This document shows positions 11,481 through 58,664 of a stretch of 64,000 nt of DNA, piece by piece. Below the pieces are notes generated by a model. That model had not been told where the DNA came from. It worked only from the letters and a program-made list of their open reading frames with translations, and did no database searches. Position 1 is the first letter of the stretch, and each line of letters starts with the position of its first letter. Source of the DNA: Octopus vulgaris (lineage: Eukaryota); contig OX597825.1 of assembly GCA_951406725.2 (NCBI GenBank), positions 40,176,001 through 40,240,000 on the forward strand, given 5' to 3'. Position numbers and translations under genes: made by a program.

Positions 11481-11765
11481 GTGGAAGGTGTTAGTAAGCC
11501 ATTTAAGAAACACACAACAGCCGTTCGATTCACTTCAAAATTCAAGTTGAATTTGTCAAAATATTTTCGTCGCTTTAAGACCGCGACCTGTTCACTGACA
11601 AAAATGATGCAGCACGTGATGCAACACGTGATGCAGCACAGATGTTTCTTAGTGAACAGGTCACGGTCTTATTGCGACGAAAATATTTTGAAAAATTTAA
11701 CTTAAATGTTGAAGTGAATCGAACGGTTTTGTGTGTTTATCAAATGGCTTACAAACAACTTCCAC
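11481..11765. repeat. Long imperfect inverted repeat (~120-bp arms), each arm carrying a hammerhead-like motif
   Basis: 11481-11602 is the reverse complement of 11645-11765 with scattered mismatches. The loop holds 12-bp repeats GCAGCACGTGAT/GCAACACGTGAT. Confidence 0.92.
11552..11602 (-). ncRNA. Type I hammerhead ribozyme, G3-C8 core variant
   Basis: Minus strand: TTTGTCA-GTGAACA-G-GTCGC(ggtcttaaa)GCGAC-GAA-AATATT-T-TGACAAA. Perfect 7-bp stem I, 5-bp stem II, palindromic mini stem III. Degenerate partner on + at 11645-11695. Confidence 0.6.
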
Positions 11766-12529
11766 AATATAATTAATATAATATACAAAATATATAAAAT
11801 ATAAAATTTAAAATTAAGTTTTTTTAAATGTAAAATTTTAAATTTATATTTATATATTTTTTTTTTATTTTAAATTTACAAATTTTTACACTTTTAATTT
11901 TTTAATATTAATATTTATTTTTTTATATATATAACTATCAAAAATGTATTAAAAAGGTTAATATAATATAATAAGTAAAACCACTACATACGTTTCATGT
12001 CCATAGCCAACAATTTGGTAAATAATTTTTGGGACTATACCTGAGTTAATGATATTTCTGAGTTTATTATGTTTTTTTAAGCCATATTATATATTCATAG
12101 ATATCTCTAATAGTGACTTTGTTCTATTATAACTTAAATATAGCTATTTTCATTGATAATTTGTATTAGTATTGTTCATTGATAAAATATATTTGTAGTT
12201 TTCAATGTTAAAAGAATTTTCCATTTGTTTATTATTAGTTTAGTTAATGACACTATTTTTGAAAGTTAAGTAAACCTTTTTATTAAAGTTATTTTAACAA
12301 TTTATGTTATTTTGTATTATATTGGATACTATATAACTAAGGATTGATAAGTTGTTGAAGATATGTATTTCATCATTAGAGTATAACTATACGGTTTTTG
12401 TAAGTTACTAATTAGCCAACGAGATATATTGATCCTTAAATAGTTATACGTTTTTTTAAAGATAGGTTATACGTTAATAATTTGCTTTTTCATATTTAAT
12501 TTTTTAATATATGTCGTAAATAATAATGG

Positions 12530-13083
12530 GAGAGGCAATAACCTTGAAACTATAGTCCGTATGTATCACTTAGGTTTTCGTGGGAGGATGACCTCCCTTT
12601 GCAAATAACACAAGGGTACTGAAATTGTGTCTAAGGCCAGCTGGAGACGTTGATCTCCTGGGGCTAAAAGCGTCAGTAACACCCCACCCCCAGTGGCTAG
12701 CCACATTCAGATGGCTAGTACACTTTACGTTGTCTAGCGGTTACTGTTTATATCTCGTTCGGAGATTTATTAATGCTTTCAGACAGTTTTTCTAAATCAG
12801 TGACTGTGGTTGCTGGGAAAAACGTTAAATATTATTTGCAAAGGTCTCCTTCATCGAAAACCGGTGTTTACCATGCGTTGACGTGAGGCAATAACCTTGA
12901 AACTATAGTCCGTATGTATCAGTTAGGTTTTCGAGGGAGGATGACCTCCCTTTGCAAATAACACAAGGGCACTGAAATTGTGTCTAAGGCCAGGTGGAGA
13001 CGTTGATTCCTGGGGCTAAAAGCGTCAGTAACACCCCGCCCCCAGTGGCTAGCCACATTCAGATGGCTAGTACACTTTACGTT
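12530..13083 (+). mobile_element. Retrozyme-like element: ~1.57 tandem copies of a 353-bp structured unit with a type I hammerhead at the unit junction
   Basis: 12532-12731 repeats at 12885-13083 (about 5 substitutions and 1 indel). GC-richer island in very AT-rich DNA, no ORF, GTC cleavage triplets ending at 12557 and 12910. Confidence 0.75.
12872..12916 (+). ncRNA. Type I hammerhead ribozyme, core mutated in this copy
   Basis: CATGCG-TTGACGT-GAGG(caataa)CCTT-GAA-ACTATAGT-C-CGTATG. Differs from the canonical core at C3U and A9U; the truncated upstream copy has GA at positions 8-9 (12530-12531). Confidence 0.7.
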
Positions 13084-13786
13084 AATTTATTTAGTTTTCA
13101 TTATACGTATATATATTTTTTGATAGAGAAAATTTTAGATCTTAATTATTATATTTATTAATAATAATTTAGTTTTTATTCTTAAATACTTTATAATTAT
13201 TCGATTTGAACTTAAATTTAAAAATATGAACAGTGATTATTTTTTGGTTAAATAATTTGGTAATACGATATTGACTATAACTGAGATTAGGTTATTCGTG
13301 ATTTCATTAGGTATTTATAGTCATATTATATCTTAATAGATAAATACATTTTTTACCTTAAAAATTAATATTTAACATTATAATAGGATTCTTTGACATA
13401 ATCCTAACCGTTAAAGTTTCTAATTTGATAATAGAGTTTATTTTTATAAGAAAAACTAATCTTTTATTTATTTCTTTAAAAATATTGTTTAAATATATTT
13501 GCTTATTTATTTAACTATTATCTTTAACCTGAAGATTGACTATGATTATAATTCGAATTTTAATTGAATTTAAATTATTGTAATTAGAATTGGGTTATGG
13601 CCATGAAATGTACGTATTTGATTTGCCTAATAGTGGTTTTATCTCTAATTTTTATTTATATATATATATACATACATATGTGTGTACGTGCATTTTATGT
13701 GTATATTAGTTGGCATGCATGTGCATTTATTTCTGTATACAAGTGAATCTTAAGAGACATTCGCGTGTCTTATATGTATATGTATT

Positions 13787-20880: not shown

Positions 20881-20918
20881 CAGTTGAAAAGGTCTCAAAA
20901 TGACCGAAACCGGTACTG
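20881..20918 (+). ncRNA. Type I hammerhead, U3-A8 variant
   Basis: CAG-TTGAAAA-GGTC(tcaaaat)GACC-GAA-ACCGGT-A-CTG. All three stems pair; GUA cleavage triplet ends at 20915. Confidence 0.68.
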
Positions 20919-23715
20919 AAATGTTCTTTATAAAATTATTTTAGCATATCAGGAATACCCCCACTTCAAACAGAGAAAGGATAAATCAATACCCACAGGA
21001 TAGACACTGCAACCTCCTCCCCACCCAAAAGAGTTACCAACGAAATCTTCGTTCCAACAACCGACTAAACAGCCATGCACAACAAACCCACACCACTCGC
21101 AATGATTATCAACGAAGGCCTCCTAAAACACCACACCCGAATATGGGATATCGGGACGCACTTCTCAATACTGTTCCAAGAACACACACCATTAATCACA
21201 ACAGGACAGCCAACATCAACAAAGAACAACTATATAATAGCTACCGTCCCAACCACCGCATTCATTTTTTAGACCCAATACGCAAACACAGTGACACAAG
21301 ATAGCACCAAACAAACAGGAGGAACCAAAAGTGATAAAAATTATCAATCTAACTCACAAAGAAATAACAGCAAACCAAATAAATATACTTTCCAAAGGAC
21401 TCAAGTTTACACCCACCCCACAACACCCTAACTACAATGAACTGAAAGAAGACATCGCAGAATTCTGCAGAAAATTACGACTTACTGAGGAGCTATATGA
21501 CAAATACAACGAGGACGAATCGTTGGTCAGAAATAGAAGTAACTACACTTACTCATTTCTGTGACCACATATCGAATTAGCCATATCAACATATGCACAA
21601 ACAAAAACACAAAGCAACCTTGATCAAAAAAGAATGGACTGAGTTGAACAAATTAAGACAATACACAACAATAACAATCAAAGAGGCCGATAAAGGGAGT
21701 GCAGTTGTCTTAATAGTCACGACATTTTACATAACTTTTGTACTATCTATGCTGGAAGACACAGCATATTATGAAAAGGCACAAAACTACAGTCAACAAA
21801 AAATAATGAGGGAACTAAAATCATGTTAACCCCATACAAAGAAGGGATCACCGACAAAGAAATATGACTATATGACCAATTTCACAAGTAAAACCAGCCA
21901 ATTCAACGGTATTCCTAAGATACACAAAAGTGAGAAAATAAGTAACGCATGCAAGATAGCTACAGACAAAATAATTAAAGTCCCTAATCCTAATGACCTC
22001 AAATAATAGCAGGTCCCGCATGTGAAACCCACCGCCTCAGTAACGTTTTAGACACCCTGTTAAAACCACTTCTCAAACATGTCAAAAGCTATATAAGGGA
22101 CAACCTGGATATGCTCAATCACCTGCCTAAAACAATAAACAAAAACACCCTACTAGTATCCTTCGATGTAGTCAACCTCTATTCCAATATCACCCACAAC
22201 CTAGGAATAGAAGCAATTCAGTTCTGGCTAGAGAATCACGCCAACGAACTCCCACATCGCATCAAAAAAGAATTCGTGATAGAAGAGGTTAAATTCATCC
22301 TGGAAAATAACTTCTTCGCCTTCAAAGACAACATTTACCGACAAAAATCGGGGACTGCGATGGGTACACGAATGGCCCCCTCCTTTGCCAACCTGGTCAT
22401 GGTATATCTAGAAATCAGTCTGTATCGTAAGGTTCTAGAAAGATATGGCAGCCTTTTCTCCATCTACATATAAAACAACTGGAAGAGATATCTAGATGAC
22501 TGTTTCATTCTTTGGCATGAAAATATAGAGAAACTCAAAGAATTCCAAGCAATTTTAAATGGACTGGACGTAAACATCCAATTCACGATGGAATATAGCC
22601 AGCAACAACTCCCCTTCCACGATATCCTTATTAAGAAAGCTAATAATGTAATAGAAACAGACATATAATATAAGGCTACAGATTCTAAGCAGTATCTTCC
22701 ATCCAATTCATGCCACCCCAGGCACACAAGAATGAATATCCCCTTCAATCTAGCAAAAAGAATATGTACTATAGTTTCTAATGCAAACACCAGAGACACA
22801 CGACTACAGGAACTAAAATATACCCTCATCACCAGGAACTAGCCACCTTCACTTATTGGCATATGTATTCGTCATGCCCTTCAACTCAACATCCAGGAAC
22901 TCAGACATCCCAAATCAAAGAAAAATTTACGACCAAAAGCCTTACCATACATATCCACACACAAACCTCTCAACAATGAAGCCTTCGACACCATCCTCCA
23001 AAACATACCCCTCCTAAAAATGTACCACAGAATGAACACAATCCTCCAAACACACACGATCATAAAAAAGCAAGAGACAGCCTAAATCTATGAAAAGTCT
23101 CCTAACACAAGTTCGAATACGCTCTTCAACACAGAAGCCGACAGTAAAAAAATGTGGAAGACACAATTGCGGGATATGCGATTATCTAATTGAGGGATCA
23201 GAGTTCTCCTTCAAAGAGGGACAACGGTATACAGTGAAAAGCAACTTCACATGTGCTTCGGAGAACCTGATATACACACTAACCTGCTCTGGGTGTCAAG
23301 TGCAGTACATAGGCCAAACAAAAATAGTTTGCGTAAAAGAATGGCCCTGCACAGATCCAAGATAAAAATTCCCCAAAACAGAAAAATAGCTTTCAGCCAA
23401 CACATAGATACTTGCGCCAACAACAAAACACCAAACTTCAGGATTTTCTCCCTCTACCAATTCAGGGACGATACAACCTCGAGACAACGAATAAGTAAAG
23501 AAACTCTCTTTATCACAAAATACAGGTCACTTCTTAACGGGTCTACGACAAACGATATATACACCTCGGCTTTAGAATAACACAATTACACACGAAAATA
23601 TTCCTTCCAAAGGATCCATTACAAATCAGCCACAATCACAGCTATAACCCATAACGTGCCAACTTCAAGTCATACAACACCTCACTATTTCCACTCATTC
23701 ATATTCTCCCTTCTG

Positions 23716-33854: not shown

Positions 33855-34877
33855 TTAATAATAATATTGATAAAAAAAAAATAATAATAATAAGTTACAT
33901 GAGCCACGCTTACTACAACTGCCCCTGCGGTTACTACTATTATTACTACTACTACTACTACTGCTGCTGCTATTGCTGCTTGTTCTCCAACTACTGTTGC
34001 TGCTGCTGCTAATAATGATAAATCCGGACCATGTATGAAGATCAGTTGTTAAAATAAATAAATAAAGTTATAAATACTAATAAGATACTAAATAAATAAA
34101 TAAATAAATAATATCTAAAAAATGAATATTTAATAATAATTTAACTTTACTTAGAAAGAAACTAAAATTTCAAAGAGTACACCGAATCGCTAGTCCAATG
34201 GTTATTCATGAAGCGCGCCTGTCAGGAGGCTGTCAGCCTGCCGGCGACAAAATTATTTTAGATATCTTACCCACTTATTTGTTTTATTAATTTTATTTTG
34301 CTCGTTCACTTGCCAATGCTGACCATTGTTTTATTTATTTGTTTTTTGTTTTATTTATTAACTATCAACGAAGCAGAACCACTTCATGGTTTTCAAAAGA
34401 GAGCTGCCCAATTAGGTTGTAGGAACAACTATGACCCCACCCCTCTACACATAGGGATTCCGAGATTTGCAACGAACATACTATCGCATTTTGGCCCCAC
34501 CTGGTTCCTTCCTCTCATTGAGGCACTCATATACCAATTTTCCCAAGGTGGGTTCATCAACATAAGCTACTTATGCCATACTATTCGCAACGTTACACCT
34601 ACTAACTGGCACTTTGCATATAAACTTTCACCTCCACAACCTGGACCATATTCTCAAACCCACCACTGAAGCTCTATGTAAACATGTGAACTACTGCCTA
34701 AAATTATTCTTAATGTAAAAGCTTCCTGGAGAACGACTATATTCGCTTATCCACCACTGGACGAAATAACATGGATCCTATAATACATCACGGGATGTCT
34801 TTATCTTATTTTCCCTTGCTATACCTAAACCATTATAGTAAGATGCACTTCACTTACATCCTCATGCTTGTAGAGTT

Positions 34878-35603
34878 ATGGGTACATGTGTCTGTGGAGT
34901 GCTCAGCCATAATTCTCTACTTATAGAAAATGGCATACAGCGGGCTATAAAAATACCTATACAACAACTTAGGACAACCCAAGGAAGAGGAAAACAAGAA
35001 CAAGTCATACCATTCATAGTGACACACAACCCATGTCACCAGAATATCTTCAACATTGCCAAAGCAAACCTACCAATCATTGCCCAAAGTAATGAATTAA
35101 AAGACATAATCAAGGATCGAGCTATGGTGCTTAGTAAAAGACAGCCTAAAAACTTGAAAACATTACTAACAAAGGCAAAATTTGACCTCAGCAACAAAGA
35201 CCAAACATTCACGGTATCTAAATGCAATGATAGCCGATGTGGCACATGCCAATTCATACATACCGGTCAATATATAAACACAAAAACCGGGAAAATATTC
35301 ACAAACGCGAATATGAACTGCAAAAGCAGAAATTTAATTTACTGCATCAAATGCCCAAATTGTGAAGAAATATATGTAGGTCAGACGGGAAACGCACTAT
35401 TAGAACGCTCACGTGTACACCGGCAACAGATTAGAGACCCAGAGGTCCGTCAGATACCTTTGAGTAACCACCTAGCAACATGTGGTCGGAAAATATATAT
35501 AATATTTCCATTCTACAAATTACACAGCCCAAGTGAAATCGAGAGGAAAATCAGAGAAAAGAATTTTATTGATAAATTCGAACCCAAGCTAAATAAGCAA
35601 TAA
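34878..35603 (+). CDS. PLE (Neptune-like) C-terminal fragment: thumb end, Cys linker and intact GIY-YIG endonuclease, open for 241 codons
   Basis: IPFIVTHNP, KRQPKNLK, KCNDSRCGTC, NLIYCIKCPNCEEIYVGQTG, H..Q, FPFY, REKNFIDKFEPKLN. The first ~11 codons come from a SINE fragment. Confidence 0.88.
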   Translation: MGTCVCGVLSHNSLLIENGIQRAIKIPIQQLRTTQGRGKQEQVIPFIVTHNPCHQNIFNIAKANLPIIAQSNELKDIIKDRAMVLSKRQPKNLKTLLTKAKFDLSNKDQTFTVSKCNDSRCGTCQFIHTGQYINTKTGKIFTNANMNCKSRNLIYCIKCPNCEEIYVGQTGNALLERSRVHRQQIRDPEVRQIPLSNHLATCGRKIYIIFPFYKLHSPSEIERKIREKNFIDKFEPKLNKQ

Positions 35604-36343
35604 TAATAATACTTAGAGGTATTACTTCCACTGCTACGACCATGACCACTAACAACAACAACAATACTAAAGGTGATCAAGACGAAGATAGCAGGAAAAT
35701 TATCTTATTTAGGGTTAAAAGTTCTATTGCCACCACCATCACCACTAGCAACAATAATTAAGGTGCTGACAATGATGATGATGACAATTGAAATATAAAA
35801 ATATAAAAATCTCTGACAAAGGATATTTACATTTCTAAAAATAACCCAACAATTGCTGCTTCGGCCAGGGTCAAGATAGACTTACGTCTAATGATCGTCT
35901 AATGATCGTCAGCAGAACTGATTCTGAACACATCATAAATAAACTACCAACCTTACGTAGCGAAGACGAACAGACAACTGCTCACTCCGGCCAAGCACAT
36001 GGAATGTTTATAAATCATATATCCGGTAAATGGCGGGCTTTTTACGAACTGCATGTCGGGTAATGAAAAGTATTTCGGAATAAGTTTAACAATTAAGGAT
36101 AATCTCTTAATAAGGGATCTTAACAAGAAATTATCGGGTAGCTAGCGTGAAAACCTCATAAAAGAAAAGAATCCGAAAATAATTTTTTTTCTTTTGAACA
36201 AATTAATTATATCTATATTGTATAGAGGGCATTATTACACATAAATGCCTCACACTAGGAGGGACAAAGTCATTACTACCAAAATTATACTAATCATACC
36301 CAAATGCAGTTTTTCAAAGCAAGACATTTAAAAAATGAATTTA

Positions 36344-36399
36344 GTTCTGTATCACCGTGATTTCACATTCAACTTACGTCTAATGATCGTCAGCAGAAC
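36344..36399 (-). ncRNA. Type I hammerhead ribozyme, array copy 1
   Basis: GTTCTG-CTGACGA-T-CATTAGAC(GTAA)GTTGAATG-T-GAA-ATCA(CGG)TGAT-A-CAGAAC. Perfect 6-bp stem I, canonical core, AUA triplet, U-U at the base of stem II. Confidence 0.8.
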
Positions 36400-36822
36400 T
36401 GATTCTGAACACATCATAAATAAACTACCAACCTTACGTAGCGAAGACGAACAGACAACTGCTCACTCCGGCCAAGCACATGGAATGTTTATAAATCATA
36501 TATCCGGTAAATGGCGGGCTTTTTACGAACTGCATGTCGGGTAATGAAAAGTATTTCGGAATAAGTTTAACAATTAAGGATAATCTCTTAATAAGGGATC
36601 TTAACAAGAAATTATCGGGTAGCTAGCGTGAAAACCTCATAAAAGAAAAGAATCCGAAAATAATTTTTTCTTTTGAACAAATTAATTATATCTATATTGT
36701 ATAGAGGGCATTATTACACATAAATGCCTCACACTAGGAGGGACAAAGTCATTACTACCAAAATTATACTAATCATACCCAAATGCAGTTTTTCAAAGCA
36801 AGACATTTAAAAAATGAATTTA

Positions 36823-36878
36823 GTTCTGTATCACCGTGATTTCACATTCAACTTACGTCTAATGATCGTCAGCAGAAC
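36823..36878 (-). ncRNA. Type I hammerhead ribozyme, array copy 2
   Basis: Identical to 36344-36399. Confidence 0.8.
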
Positions 36879-37302
36879 TGATTCTGAACACATCATAAAT
36901 AAACTACCAACCTTACGTAGCGAAGACGAACAGACAACTGCTCACTCCGGCCAAGCACATGGAATGTTTATAAATCATATATCCGGTAAATGGCGGGCTT
37001 TTTACGAACTGCATGTCGGGTAATGAAAAGTATTTCGGAATAAGTTTAACAATTAAGGATAATCTCTTAATAAGGGATCTTAACAAGAAATTATCGGGTA
37101 GCTAGCGTGAAAACCTCATAAAAGAAAAGAATCCGAAAATAATTTTTTTCTTTTGAACAAATTAATTATATCTATATTGTATAGAGGGCATTATTACACA
37201 TAAATGCCTCACACTAGGAGGGACAAAGTCATTACTACCAAAATTATACTAATCATACCCAAATGCAGTTTTTCAAAGCAAGACATTTAAAAAATGAATT
37301 TA

Positions 37303-37358
37303 GTTCTGTATCACCGTGATTTCACATTCAACTTACGTCTAATGATCGTCAGCAGAAC
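37303..37358 (-). ncRNA. Type I hammerhead ribozyme, array copy 3
   Basis: Identical to 36344-36399. Confidence 0.8.
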
Positions 37359-37809
37359 TGATTCTGAACACATCATAATTAAACTACCAACCTTACGTAG
37401 CGAAGACGAACAGACAACTGCTCACTCCGGCCAAGCACATGGAATGTTTATAAATCATATATCCGGTAAATGGCGGGCTTTTTACGAACTGCATGTCGGG
37501 TAATGAAAAGTATTTCGGAATAAGTTTAACAATTAAGGATAATCTCTTAATAAGGGATCTTAACAAGAAATTATTCGGGTAGCTAGCGTGAAAACCTCAT
37601 AAAATAATTTTTTTCTTTTGAACAAATTAATTATATCTATAGGAGGGACAAAGTCATTACTACCAAAATTATACTAATCATACCCAAATGCAGTTTTTCA
37701 AAGCAAGACATTTATATATATAGCAGAACTGATTCTGAACACATCATATATACCATATAGCGATACGAACAGACAACTATATAAGCACATGGATATATCA
37801 TATAGACTG

Positions 37810-38436: not shown

Positions 38437-39655
38437 TCATATGGAGTTGTGGGACCTACCTATTGATGAAAATTGCCTCTCTATTCCTTCTTTGCTGTAT
38501 TGAGGTGTTCTGTGAACAGTGATAGAAGGGGAGAATTCGGAAGTTAGGATAATTTTTCTAGCAGACATTTCTATGTGTTCACTGAGCTGTATCTGTCTGT
38601 ATTGTGGGTGGGGGATTTGTTCTTTGTGGAGAGGGGTTCTTCGACGGAGTGATATTTCTCTTTTGCCAATATACTGATTACCGCACCCTAAGCATATAAT
38701 GGCATAGATTAGATTTTCCGAGGCAGAGGTGAAATTTGATTTAATCTTAACTATTTCACCTTGTTTAAAGTCGAGTTGAGTCCCTTCCAAAAGTTCAGCG
38801 CATGTGCTACAGTTCTGTCGACCGCATTTTTTTCACTTTTCGTTCCGATGTTAATGGATATAGTCTTGCACTGGTTAATATTTTTCAATGATTTAGGTTG
38901 CATTTTTGCGTTTGATAATTTTGTGTGAGCTTAAATTTTTGTCATTGTTTTATATCCTGTGACGATGGGTAGATTGTGGATGATAATATTGTGTGGAGAT
39001 ATATGGTAATATTTTAAAGTTTGGCGTAGTATTTCGGTTGACGTCCCTTAATGTTCATATTTCCATTGCTCGTTTAATGTCATCATTTATTAATTATATT
39101 GGGTAATGTTCAAGGTTTCTTCGTCCGGGAGTATAGGTGTCCAAAACTACGGTACTGGTTCTTTTCGCTATATTATAAGGTATATTAATTTTTATGTGTT
39201 TGGGGTGGCATGAGTTGAATAATATGTATTGTTTTGAATCTGTGGGTTTAGAGAAGATGTCTGTTTCGATGTGGTTATTGACTATTTTAATTAAAATGTT
39301 AAGAAAAGGGAGCTGATTATTGCTGTGCTCCATAGTGAATTGTATGTTGCTATTGATATTCTTGAGCATTATTTAGAAATTGAGGAGTTTGTCCATGCTA
39401 TCATTCCAAAGTAGATAGTAATTCTCCAAATACCTCTTCCAGTTCTCCTTTAAATAGCAATGGAATTAGGTGCCATATTTTTGTAGTAATTATTGGTGTA
39501 TTTTGAGTTGTAGATAACCCATTACAAAATTCGCAATCACTAGGGCAGCTAGGGTTCCCATTGCAATCCCACATTTTTGTCCATAGTGAGCTATATCGAA
39601 CATGAAATAATTCTTCAGTACGATGAATTTGATTGCTGCGATTATGAATCTGTGG
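38437..39655 (-). mobile_element. 5'-truncated decayed PLE (Neptune-like), RT motif B to GIY-YIG; related to 20612-24609
   Basis: GIAMGT..ANFVMGYL, NIQFTMEHSNNQLPFL, KPTDSKQY..SCHPKH..NIPYN, NLIYAIICLGCGNQYIG. Confidence 0.92.
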
Positions 39656-55204: not shown

Positions 55205-55420
55205 TAGGAAATCCGTTGGAAAAACAAAAACAGAACAGAGGCGGAGCAAAAACAAATCGAACTATGCTCCTAAGAGCCCATGGCGAAACTGTTTATCAGT
55301 GTATGTTGAGAACCGGTGGCTGAAGAATTCAACGGGTCAGGCATCGGTCAATCAAATGGGTGAGGGTCACATAATACATACCGCTTCGTCAAGAAACTGC
55401 TACTTTAACCGATACCAATA

Positions 55421-55846
55421 ATGGAGTTGTTCGAGATTGATGCGTCCCTTAAGGATATTCCTATGCCACCAAAGGATGCCTTCCTTAAGGAGTTGGTTTG
55501 TAAAACCAACGCATTCATAAACCGGATAAGATGGCTCATTTTCTTCCACGAGAACGAAGATCTAAAATCGAACCGGACAACAGCATCGTCCGAATACGGC
55601 CGGCTTTTTAAAACATTGGATACGCCGCCACCTAACCCAAGACTGAAGAAGTTTGAGGACGACTTGTGGGACATAGTTAGAAAGATTAAGTTCAGGAAGT
55701 CACCCAGGAGAAATGCCCACCTCAGATACCTAGATAAAATTAGCAAGGACATTAATAGAACGGACGGAGTCCTGGTCCAGTCCGACAAGACCAGGAACAC
55801 ATACAAGATGCCCATTAAGCAGTACCTAGATTTACCTAGATTTTAG
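55421..55846 (+). CDS. PLE polyprotein N-terminal part, ending at an internal deletion and frameshift
   Basis: SLKDIPMP, FINRIRW, LKKFEDDL, SDKTRN (DKG/DKT motif). Confidence 0.85.
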   Translation: MELFEIDASLKDIPMPPKDAFLKELVCKTNAFINRIRWLIFFHENEDLKSNRTTASSEYGRLFKTLDTPPPNPRLKKFEDDLWDIVRKIKFRKSPRRNAHLRYLDKISKDINRTDGVLVQSDKTRNTYKMPIKQYLDLPRF

Positions 55847-57651
55847 TTGCCAGGAAATCGTTTATTAAGTTTGATAATAAGTTGTGGATCCGTAAAGATA
55901 CTCCCAATGAATTTGATGTGCCTATGGGTAGTTCGGATAGTGCGCAGATAGCCGATTTGGTCGGAATATATATTCTCTACGAATTGTCCGACCAATTCCC
56001 GGAGATCGCGGGCGGCCTGTATCGTGACGATTGTCTGTTTTACCTGCAAAACACCACGAACAGAATAGTGCAGAAAACTAAGAGCAGGTTAGCTAGGTTT
56101 TTTAATAGAATGGGCATGAGTATAGTTTTTGATAATGAACTCACCAAGGCCAATTTCCTAGACGTTACACTTAACCTTAATAGCGACTCATACTGCCCTT
56201 ACCATAAGCCTTCCACTAATTTGAAGTATGTCAGTGTCTTCTCAAATCATGCCAAAACCGTAACAGACAATTTGGTTAAAAACATCTCTCTAAGATTGTC
56301 TGGCTTGTCCGCCAGTGCCGATATTTTTATGCAGAAAGCGGAATTTTATAACGCCGCACTATCCAAGGCCGGTTATAGGCAGAAGGTAATTTATATTGAT
56401 CCGGCCCTTCCGATGCCATCATTCGGTCATCAGGATAGGGCCGTATATAATAACATTAACATTTTAAGTAAGGACGGGAGCGCGGTGGATGCCGGAGTAG
56501 TTGCTCCCGCATTTAATTTAGCGAAGAAGGATAATTATCGGTCCGGGAGGTCTTACACTAACCCAAGACCCGTTATTCATCCGAGAATCACCCACCCGAA
56601 TGCGAGAGCTGGCGTCCCGATCCATCACACTGATAGGAATAAGCATATATGGTTTGTAATCCCCTTTGGTAAGCAGATTAGAACTAACCTCCCCCTCATG
56701 TTTAGACAAGCCATCGCCAATAACTTCCCCAGAAGTTCCAAATATTACTCCACGGTTAACTCGCATAAAGTTAGGATAGCTTTCTCCAACACTAAAAACC
56801 TCGCCCAGATAATCGCCTCCCATAATAATAGGCTACTTACTAAGACCCTATCACCTTTTTCCGGAGGCACAGCCTCTTCCGCTCCCGGTTTAATGCTCAG
56901 TAGGAATAATTATAGTAGTAAGAATGATATGAGAGCCAGTACAGTGACACATAATCTCAGCTCCAGCCAGGGAGTACCCACTAGGGGTATAGTTATAAAT
57001 AGGGGTGTTGTGGTTGAAGGTAACAATGGGAGTAGGGTAGAGAGCCCCAATAGCATCCCCAGCATCATTTCCCGCTATAGCAGCACCACGGGCAGTAGCA
57101 ATGACAGCACTTTGATAGATAGTGGAGAATCAGGCGTTATTCCTATAGTTAATAGTGACGTAGTGGAAAATAGAGTAGTAAGCGGCTGCAGGTCTCGGAA
57201 CGAATATAGTGACAGGAACGCAGTTCTAATTTCAGAAACTAATCCTAGCAGAATTAGATTCACGTCGGCGAACTCCAAGATCAAAAACGCCGTCTACCAA
57301 TGCAAGGTTTACACGGACTCAGATGTTTTCACTTATGTAGGGGCCTCATCCTCAAGATTGTCTTTGCGTGTCTCCAACCATTACGCAACTTTTCGGGACA
57401 TGAACAAGCGCCAGACCACGGGACTCAGTAAGCTAATATGGCGACTGAAGGATATGAACTTAAGCTACAGGCTGGAATGGTCAATTTTGTCGGTGGCCCT
57501 CCCATTTGATAGGGGCAGAAGCCAGTGCAACCTTTGTGTCTCCGAACTCTTCCATATTTTGTTTGCCAGAGGCCGGATGGTAAACGGGCTTTTACAATCG
57601 GCTTTTCGATGCCCCCATTGGCGGCGTTACACTTATCTGGCTTCTAAATAG
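55843..57651 (+). CDS. PLE RT (motif B to thumb), long linker and GIY-YIG endonuclease, uninterrupted reading frame
   Basis: ARKSF, FDVPMGSSDSAQIADLVG, GLYRDDCL, NFLDVTL, YHKP..YV..SNH, AVYQC..TYVGAS, H..F, LSKLIW, WSIL, CNLC.SE, RCPH. Confidence 0.92.
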   Translation, partial: LVARKSFIKFDNKLWIRKDTPNEFDVPMGSSDSAQIADLVGIYILYELSDQFPEIAGGLYRDDCLFYLQNTTNRIVQKTKSRLARFFNRMGMSIVFDNELTKANFLDVTLNLNSDSYCPYHKPSTNLKYVSVFSNHAKTVTDNLVKNISLRLSGLSASADIFMQKAEFYNAALSKAGYRQKVIYIDPALPMPSFGHQDRAVYNNINILSKDGSAVDAGVVAPAFNLAKKDNYRSGRSYTNPRPVIHPRITHPNARAGVPIHHTDRNKHIWFVIPFGKQIRTNLPLMFRQAIANNFPRSSKYYSTVNSHKVRIAFSNTKNLAQIIASHNNRLLTKTLSPFSGGTASSAPGLMLSRNNYSSKNDMRASTVTHNLSSSQGVPTRGIVINRGVVVEGNNGSRVESPNSIPSIISRYSSTTGSSNDSTLIDSGESGVIPIVNSDVVENRVVSGCRSRNEYSDRNAVLISETNPSRIRFTSANSKIKNAVYQCKVYTDSDVFTYVGASSSRLSLRVSNHYATFRDMNKRQTTGLSKLIWRLKDMNLSYRLEWSILSVALPFDRGRSQCNLCVSELFHILFARGRMVNGLLQSAFRCPHWRRYTYLASK

Positions 57652-58238
57652 CGTTTATAAATAATACCGGCACCCATAGCCCTTGGTAACAAATTCTGAA
57701 ATAGCCTTTAAGATATCTACGATTAACCACTGCAAGGGGAATTACTCCTGTAAGACAAACGGGGCTTGGTTTTTTCACAGCGGGGGGTTTCCTTGACAAG
57801 GCAGGCTTAGATGAACACACACACACATAAAACATGATATATATTTTTTTTTTCTGCCACCCAACGGTTATCACGGCAGTAGCCACTGACAGCCGAACGA
57901 TCAAACGCACACACGTACACAAAAAATGTTTTCTACCCCTACGCCAACACACACATATATAGAACAGTATACACACACACACGTCTCTAAGTAGATTTTT
58001 TCTCGCCCCTTATAAAACATCCAATATTCCTTAAATAGTCAGAACTTTATTCTCGGTCACAAAGAACATCTACGCACCCTCACCCACATGATTGACCGAT
58101 GCCTGACCCGTTGAATTCTTCAGCCACCGGTTCTCAACATACACTGATAAACAGTTTCGCCATGGGCTCTTAGGAGCATAGTTCGATTTGTTTTTGCTCC
58201 GCCTCTGTTCTGTTTTTGTTTTTCCAACGGATTTCCTA

Positions 58239-58328
58239 TTTTCTTCCTGAAGAGAAAGACACAATATGGTCCCATTATTCCATCGGATTTTGGTAATTTG
58301 TGCCTTTCGAAACACGTGTAGAATGAAA
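58239..58328 (+). ncRNA. Type I hammerhead ribozyme in the 3' pLTR, canonical core
   Basis: TTTTCTTC-CTGAAGA(58247)-GAAAGACACAA...TTGTGCCTTTC-GAA-ACACGTGT-A(58320)-GAATGAAA; palindromic stem III. Confidence 0.82.
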
Positions 58329-58664
58329 TAAAACGATTTCTGTTCAATCTGCGTTCAGCTCCATTTCTTCAATTCACCAATAATGTTCTAATTTCAATTA
58401 TCCGCACCAACGCACGGTTGCAACACCATATGGTTGTACCTCCAACCGTGCTGTTTTACTGCTGTGATTTTTGCTACTAAGGTATCGGTTAAACTTTTGA
58501 TTAATCTACTACAAGATTATTCATCTTTCTATTTCACATAATATATATATATATATATATTGAAGAAGAAATAATCTTGTAGAGTGAGTTACTCTGATAT
58601 GAATTCCAAGCTTCTGGTTTCAGGCCTTGCCCATCTAAACTTCTCTTCACTCTTGATATCAAGT

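Follow-up and report, generated by a model that had tools for sequence, protein, structure and literature searches.

The window analysed here, a stretch of 64,000 nucleotides of the Octopus vulgaris genome, carries at 12530-13083 one of hundreds of dispersed copies of a young, genome-wide, 353-base and protein-free family, termed family A, which by sequence-level tests qualifies as an animal non-LTR retrozyme. New here is that three independent loci join the family-A hammerhead to the end of a Neptune-type Penelope-like element (PLE), both at their predicted cuts. Moreover, two fixed 3' ends lying 47 nt apart, often with head-to-head arms in (TA)n, constitute a Penelope footprint, which names the likely copying machinery of family A, and we regard it as very likely that we are dealing with a non-autonomous, PLE-mobilised hammerhead family.

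A first-look search of the 2.8 Gb genome returned 2896 candidates for the unit, 40 of which were scored; these contained 144 unit matches, at 84-98% identity save one at 70%. The retrozyme family proposed in a preliminary description of the window is supported, as is the reverse-transcribed origin suggested there. In all examined copies, what precedes the hammerhead is again unit sequence, for up to 3.1 units. Segment divergence had a median of 2.6% within a locus versus 6.4% between loci, and no more than 41 of 110 segments had their nearest neighbour in the same locus. The family is found under four organism labels. Contigs of sequencing runs guessed to be RNA, none of them recorded as such, cover the unit but give no sign of expression or circles; one loose-end motif had no genomic match. 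Two sister families, B (1691 exact motif matches) and C, have periods of about 350-360 and both 3' ends the same as family A. The three families show 49-57% mutual identity and a common fold with covarying stems; each has a different stem III palindrome and its own 3-8 pair (C-G in B, U-A in C, U-G in A), and no conserved reading frame was found across them. More diverged superfamily members were observed at L083 (2410-2746), L163 (3121-3321) and L173 (3437-3987), so that at least 5 or 6 families exist.

With the natural unit as reference for numbering (u1 = 12558), the window insertion is 5'-truncated, with one arm and a 3' end without tail (Table 1). As previously described, it consists of 1.57 tandem units, its two copies being spaced 353/352 and 97-99% alike, with GTC sites ending at 12557 and 12910, and it forms a GC-richer (43.6%, versus about 24-32% in the surroundings), ORF-less island, no ORF of at least 120 aa overlapping 12530-13083. 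The upstream hammerhead, with its predicted cut after 12557, is devoid of core positions 3-7 and of the stem I 5' arm. Because this hammerhead is truncated and the sole complete core has A9 changed, the window copy likely makes no monomer, and it is probably a disabled member of the family.

Table 1. Features of the family-A insertion and its host repeat (window coordinates)
Feature	Position	Strand	Remarks
Left part of interrupted older AT-rich host repeat	12009-12529		
Whole insertion	12530-13083	+	u326-353 + u1-353 + u1-174 = 1.57 units
Upstream hammerhead, truncated	12530-12563	+	stem II, GAAA, palindrome 12549-56, stem I 3' arm 12558-63
Monomer between both predicted cuts	12558-12910	+	353 nt
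Rod 5' arm	12558-12608	+	pairs with 12832-12877; the rod closes the monomer and joins both cut ends in space (predicted fold)
Conserved hairpin, then proximal family 3' end	12697-12731	+	u174 = 12731, reused at 13083
47-nt tail with CTC/GAG hairpin	12732-12778	+	finishes at distal family 3' end, u221 = 12778
Rod 3' arm	12832-12877	+	terminates in stem I 5' arm 12872-77
Complete type I hammerhead motif	12872-12916	+	U3 12878, G8 12883, private U9 12884; stem II 12885-88/12895-98, 10.1-11.1 = G-U; GAA 12899-901; 8-nt palindrome 12902-09; C17 12910; stem I 3' arm 12911-16
Right part of host repeat	13084-13632		no target duplication

In eight of nine host-repeat paralogues the site is empty and includes 7 AT nucleotides that are missing at the window junction. 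A contig of run X18 that skips the insertion was considered as an empty allele and rejected: since 8 of 9 host-repeat paralogues yield an identical join, it is no evidence of polymorphism. The host repeat has more than 1000 candidates, an internal direct repeat and imperfect inverted repeats (75%) at its ends (window 11969-12008 and 13593-13632), and is possibly a non-autonomous DNA element. At window 11521-11726, an 85-nt inverted repeat (88% complementary) flanks three 12-nt repeats.

When the monomer 12558-12910 was folded as a circle, in keeping with the closed structure proposed for it, it reached -107.1 kcal/mol, against -85.4 ± 5.5 for shuffled sequences (0 of 100 as low; z about -3.9), while none of 30 GC-matched control pieces of the window reached z -3.5, their mean z being 0.0. 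Among the pairings named in the preliminary description, the stems 12573-80/12855-62 and 12596-608/12832-44 are perfect and both appear in the predicted fold, whereas the pairing of 12737-46 with 12798-807 is imperfect and, like that of 12727-31 with 12821-25, absent from it; the CATGCG/CGTATG arm, held to need a circle, has both its arms within the linear monomer and is paired in the linear fold. The latter is slightly more stable than the circular one (-111.5 versus -107.1), and a z of -3.4 for the minus strand, close to that of the plus strand, means that the strand cannot be assigned from folding alone. That the closed fold is conserved is supported by natural monomers of families A, B and C, 15 of 15 of which fold below shuffles (z -2.4 to -5.5), and by swapping the arms of the rod, which lie 250 nt apart: partners from one family reach -38 to -41 kcal/mol, those from different families -16 to -32. 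This arm-swap test was used in place of a three-family consensus fold, which did not recover the rod, since the arms cannot be aligned between families. Across families A, B and C, all 6 of 6 stem I pairs have both partners changed; covariation within a family is small (5 of 109 pairs, in related sequences).

The type I hammerhead said to span the unit junction was indeed found as a motif at 12872-12916; Rfam models, at two thresholds, scored no hammerhead in the window insertion. Using an exact motif pattern with 0 matches in controls, we found U3 in 426 motifs genome-wide and a different base in 19 (8 C, 5 G, 6 A); the family is thus U3, and not CTGACGA in its core as had been expected. The first 100 motifs of the list comprise 78 with U3-G8, 7 of family A with U3-A8 and 15 of sister family C; instead of the Watson-Crick 3-8 pair (C-G or U-A) of type I hammerheads, 78 of these 100 have U3-G8, the other 22 having U3-A8. 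Position 9 is A in 74 of 75 aligned family segments and in all sequencing-run contigs examined. Hence, of the two core changes taken as damage, U9 is private to the window copy, whereas U3 is the family state. The family otherwise has U4 G5 A6, A9, G12 A13 A14, A15.1-U16.1, H17 and three helices, the window copy departing by A9 to U. The combination of U3-G8 with G-U at 10.1-11.1 should weaken the core. We found in the literature neither a family-wide U3-G8 hammerhead nor a rate for U3-G8; the U3-A8 core is already published (PMC4209133, PMC3088659), and PMC7151607 cites a single halophile variant whose sequence is given with U3 and G8. Such a U3-G8 core escapes standard C3 descriptors and Rfam.

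Predicted folds agree with the dimer-type palindromic stem III put forward earlier, helix III of the family hammerhead forming only as a dimer: a lone stem III mini-stem would cost +2.9 and the palindrome duplex would give -7.2. Pairing of the downstream core with the upstream cut site is predicted for the window RNA (p 0.88), and in the dimer of L002 the predicted double hammerhead beats two singles by 10 kcal/mol; at L010 and L011 the palindrome duplex is not formed in the unconstrained fold (p under 0.05). Two consecutive complete hammerheads, by which Li 2026 defines 'active' copies, are present in others such as L010 but not in the window copy.

Insertion ends were mapped at 24 non-redundant loci picked by similarity (6 of 30 being dropped as a repeated place or segmental duplicates) and 16 picked by pattern, L031 and L036-38 having been left out of the latter set as not full family A. 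Of 67 arm 3' ends, 32 lie near u174, 18 near u221 and 17 elsewhere (28, 17 and 17, respectively, for the 62 without locally duplicated arms), both 10-nt windows around u174 and u221 representing 6% of the unit. In each of runs X18, X19, X20 and X3, contigs have loose ends at 12731, at 12777-78 or at both, and at these same two sites loose ends occur in runs of three organism labels. Among 17 head-to-head loci, 12 have one arm per end type and none has two alike; (TA)n adjoins 9 of 24 loci, and duplications of 9-12 nt are present at 3. Arm 5' ends fall at u318-332 in 8 of 34 similarity-picked and 3 of 33 pattern-picked arms, a difference possibly due to selection bias, and 3 of 67 arms start at most 5 nt from the predicted cut. 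Family A thus combines the tail between two 3' ends, the inverted 5' arm and the microsatellite bias of EN+ PLEs, for which a 30-40 bp tail is described alongside partial tandems and inverted 5' copies (PMC8557442), the tail being placed between two internal RT starts, with cutting at ATT (PMC11167929). The proximal end u174 may be the first reverse-transcription start and the distal end u221 the second.

The genome holds intact two-ORF PLEs (RT ORFs of 776-784 aa, in near-identical copies), two of the three tested carrying GIY-YIG, and also a single-ORF PLE type; the Neptune-type assignment follows a CxxC linker seen here and PMC8557442. Five local PLE-type end families have two 3' ends about 30-38 nt apart, and the hammerheads of local pseudo-LTRs (pLTRs) are mostly of the U3-A8 kind. 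Neither N-terminal, GIY-YIG and single-ORF PLE searches of the genome nor local alignments (11 segments, z at most 2) revealed a parent PLE. In 97 PLE loci, a profile of families A, B and C matched no pLTR, just free insertions, and no PLE with unit sequence or the 47-nt tail was detected; no examined copy of the unit has an RT plus GIY-YIG ORF between pLTRs, as an autonomous PLE would, or enters a PLE ORF. Hammerhead pairs 3580, 1630 and 1385 apart were considered as pLTR pairs and rejected as duplicated segments. The window itself contains, at 55409-58500, a very young single-ORF PLE with many 100% identical copies and 899-aa frames elsewhere, which has a C3 hammerhead at 58247 with a long stem II and ends seemingly about 160 nt apart. 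More PLE fragments (RT, GIY-YIG) and U3-A8 pLTR hammerheads occur at 20884, 21997-23580, 34842-35603, 38437-38832 and 52369, and at 35896-37604 a 479-bp unit, repeated 3.6 times and 99% alike, lies directly behind a GIY-YIG ORF, with no clear hammerhead.

One locus, L031, holds only u306-353 of the unit, followed by foreign sequence in which a PLE-type family with 1148 candidates has its 3' end. Native copies of this partner PLE read palindrome, GTA, then the same letters as in L031, and 21 of 23 arms share an A-run; at L218 a GIY-YIG ORF precedes the partner end by about 750 nt. When the whole genome was scanned with a pattern for family-A hammerheads lacking their own next two letters, 6 matches were obtained, 5 of which continue into the PLE end at the PLE's own predicted cut. 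These represent 3 independent, unrelated loci, namely C1 (duplicated), C5 (two arms, one minus an A) and C15, and involve two family-A subtypes and three partner variants, with the family-A side ending exactly at GUC. Because C17 is kept, a shared GT fails to explain the join, and terminations at u353 would be expected about 0.3 times among some 400 arms (an estimate from the 17 of 67 stray ends, a precise partner not being required). The reverse pattern yielded genome-wide a single match starting exactly at the cut with both preceding letters foreign. The sixth match (L213/L217) comprises u296-353, ends at the predicted cut and enters a different LINE-like element or ORF, with no unit sequence within 10 kb past the join; this one case is possibly another cut-end join. 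The partner PLE motif has a U3-A8 core and, in the native arms seen (L190-L207, L218), GCAA where GAAA is expected; since this box reads GCAA, the partner cut is itself non-canonical. At L219, two copies have other sequence joined straight onto the partner PLE's predicted cut.

Hammerhead cut ends bear a cyclic phosphate and a 5'-OH and are RtcB substrates. The chimeras likely record in-vivo cleavage plus ligation, or an RT jump, and the end-joining behind them would be the chemistry that circles need. In vitro, animal retrozymes are circularised by RtcB (PMC7229834), an enzyme that also generates retrotransposing U6/L1 chimeras (PMC6789731). A thin literature search, covering titles and abstract openings, found no report of such retrozyme-PLE joins at cut sites. 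A different kind of association was observed at L215 (5595) and L216 (5360), on the minus strand, and at L017 and L029, where two related LINEs lie within family-A copies, all after u312 and with u294-312 duplicated (19 bp), L216 having exo-endo-phosphatase, RT and zf-RVT; these are likely a site-specific retrotransposon targeting the retrozyme.

The reading that we prefer is the following: (i) family RNA would be cut at GUC by paired (double) hammerheads in germ-line cells, the rod being predicted to pair each cut site with the core of the next unit and dimers to fold as double hammerheads, (ii) the cut RNA would be joined end to end, into circles or multimers, by a host ligase of the RtcB type, (iii) the circles would serve as templates, and (iv) a Penelope-type RT, the helper presumably being a Neptune-type PLE, would copy the RNA into AT-rich DNA from two fixed internal sites. 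What the genome itself shows is tandem circularly permuted copies, TA-rich targets, intact PLE ORFs and the three cut-to-cut chimeras. We judge the full mechanism, ligation and circles included, to be reasonably probable. That the U3-G8 hammerhead cuts in the germ line, and that retrozyme and PLE cut ends are ligated together and retrotransposed, is put forward tentatively, as something that may well be so or may equally fail; if true, the genome keeps fossils of the circularising reaction and a route for swapping ribozyme modules among elements. An anole PLE inserts in vitro without need for cleavage, no reads ending at the cut (PMC11167929), and among 9 Xenopus retrozyme dimers, 8 failed to cleave (10.64898/2026.07.22.740005).

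A circular template is what we favour, but it is conceivable, if rather unlikely, that the templates of the PLE enzyme are linear, either read-through or cut RNAs, and that it jumps between cut ends, giving tandems and chimeras with no circles at all. PLE tandems arise without proof of circles (PMC11167929), the fold of the linear monomer is as good as that of the circle and keeps its ends together, and RT jumps would account equally for the chimeras. Yet the 5' ends are not piled up at the cut (one genomic match, 3 of 67 arms within 5 nt), so that copying nearly always passes through the junction, and for mussel, coral and axolotl it is circles that have been documented (PMC7229834).

The joins at three independent loci, each placed exactly after GUC and retaining C17, in several subtypes and with several partner variants, together with a palindrome and stems conserved across families, make it very unlikely that the U3-G8 hammerhead is catalytically dead and merely carried along, the family spreading via a PLE-binding structure only, even though the motif departs from C3-G8 without a compensating A8, is unscored by Rfam, and PLE insertion in vitro dispenses with cleavage (PMC11167929). 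Nor is there more than a very small probability that an autonomous Penelope element had the unit as its pseudo-LTR and survives here in truncated remnants: the tail, the inverted arms, the TA targets and the U3 core are features that local pLTRs have too, but no examined arm enters a PLE ORF, the sequence upstream is always the unit's own end in the best-scoring copies, and the A/B/C profile matches no pLTR in 97 PLE loci. An integrated infectious viroid-like RNA would fit the size, the rod-like fold and a minus strand that also folds well; it is, like a chance tandem duplication, extremely improbable against hundreds of dispersed copies with PLE ends under four organism labels, and the minus strand shows no hammerhead at the window insertion in a scan that required A9.

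Compared with animal non-LTR retrozymes, family A, a non-autonomous PLE-mobilised family in our preferred reading, shows the same tandem repeats (150-450 bp, here 353 bp), each with a type I hammerhead and a short palindromic stem III, dispersed in multiple copies, non-coding and without LTR structure or ORF, with a GC content under 50% and a monomer predicted, with covariation, to be highly self-paired; the unit size is also that of Cervera and de la Pena 2020 (PMC7229834), with 350-390 nt in mussel and 330/350 nt in axolotl. It differs from those retrozymes in its U3-G8 core, in its short dispersed insertions (at most 3.1 units seen) instead of long arrays, and in its fixed double 3' ends and inverted arms, which the main text of PMC7229834 does not mention. 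Li, Clavereau and Pollet 2026 (10.64898/2026.07.22.740005) likewise report PLE co-occurrence and infer PLE mobilisation, proposing from co-occurrence and pLTR homology that retrozymes are PLE-derived; our evidence, in contrast, consists of the insertion footprint and the chimeras, and the search for a pLTR homologue gave none. The terms 'tail', 'head-to-head' and 'initiation' are absent from the text of that preprint; related families may appear in its supplements and in those of PMC7229834.

With EN+ PLEs of the Neptune type (PMC8557442; PMC11167929; PMC4209133), family A shares two 3' ends with a tail, the inverted 5' arm, microsatellite targets and a dimer-type hammerhead, and its U3 core is also found in local pLTRs and in Schistosoma Cercyon (U3-A8); it differs in having no ORF, G8 instead of A8, and a tail of 47 nt versus about 30-38 nt locally. 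A PLE-only tail footprint without ORF, plus repeated single-nucleotide-exact joins of predicted cut sites, bears on questions raised in PMC8557442, PMC11167929 and PMC7229834, namely whether weak PLE and retrozyme hammerheads cut in the cell and which enzyme moves retrozymes, and offers defined substrates: two start sites, a covarying fold and a natural C-G / U-A / U-G series at 3-8. The chimeras, finally, would resemble those of U6 and LINE-1 (Moldovan 2019, PMC6789731) in that a cyclic-phosphate end and a 5'-OH end are joined and then retrotransposed, with the difference that here both ends would be ribozyme-made and that ligation is read from genomic DNA only.
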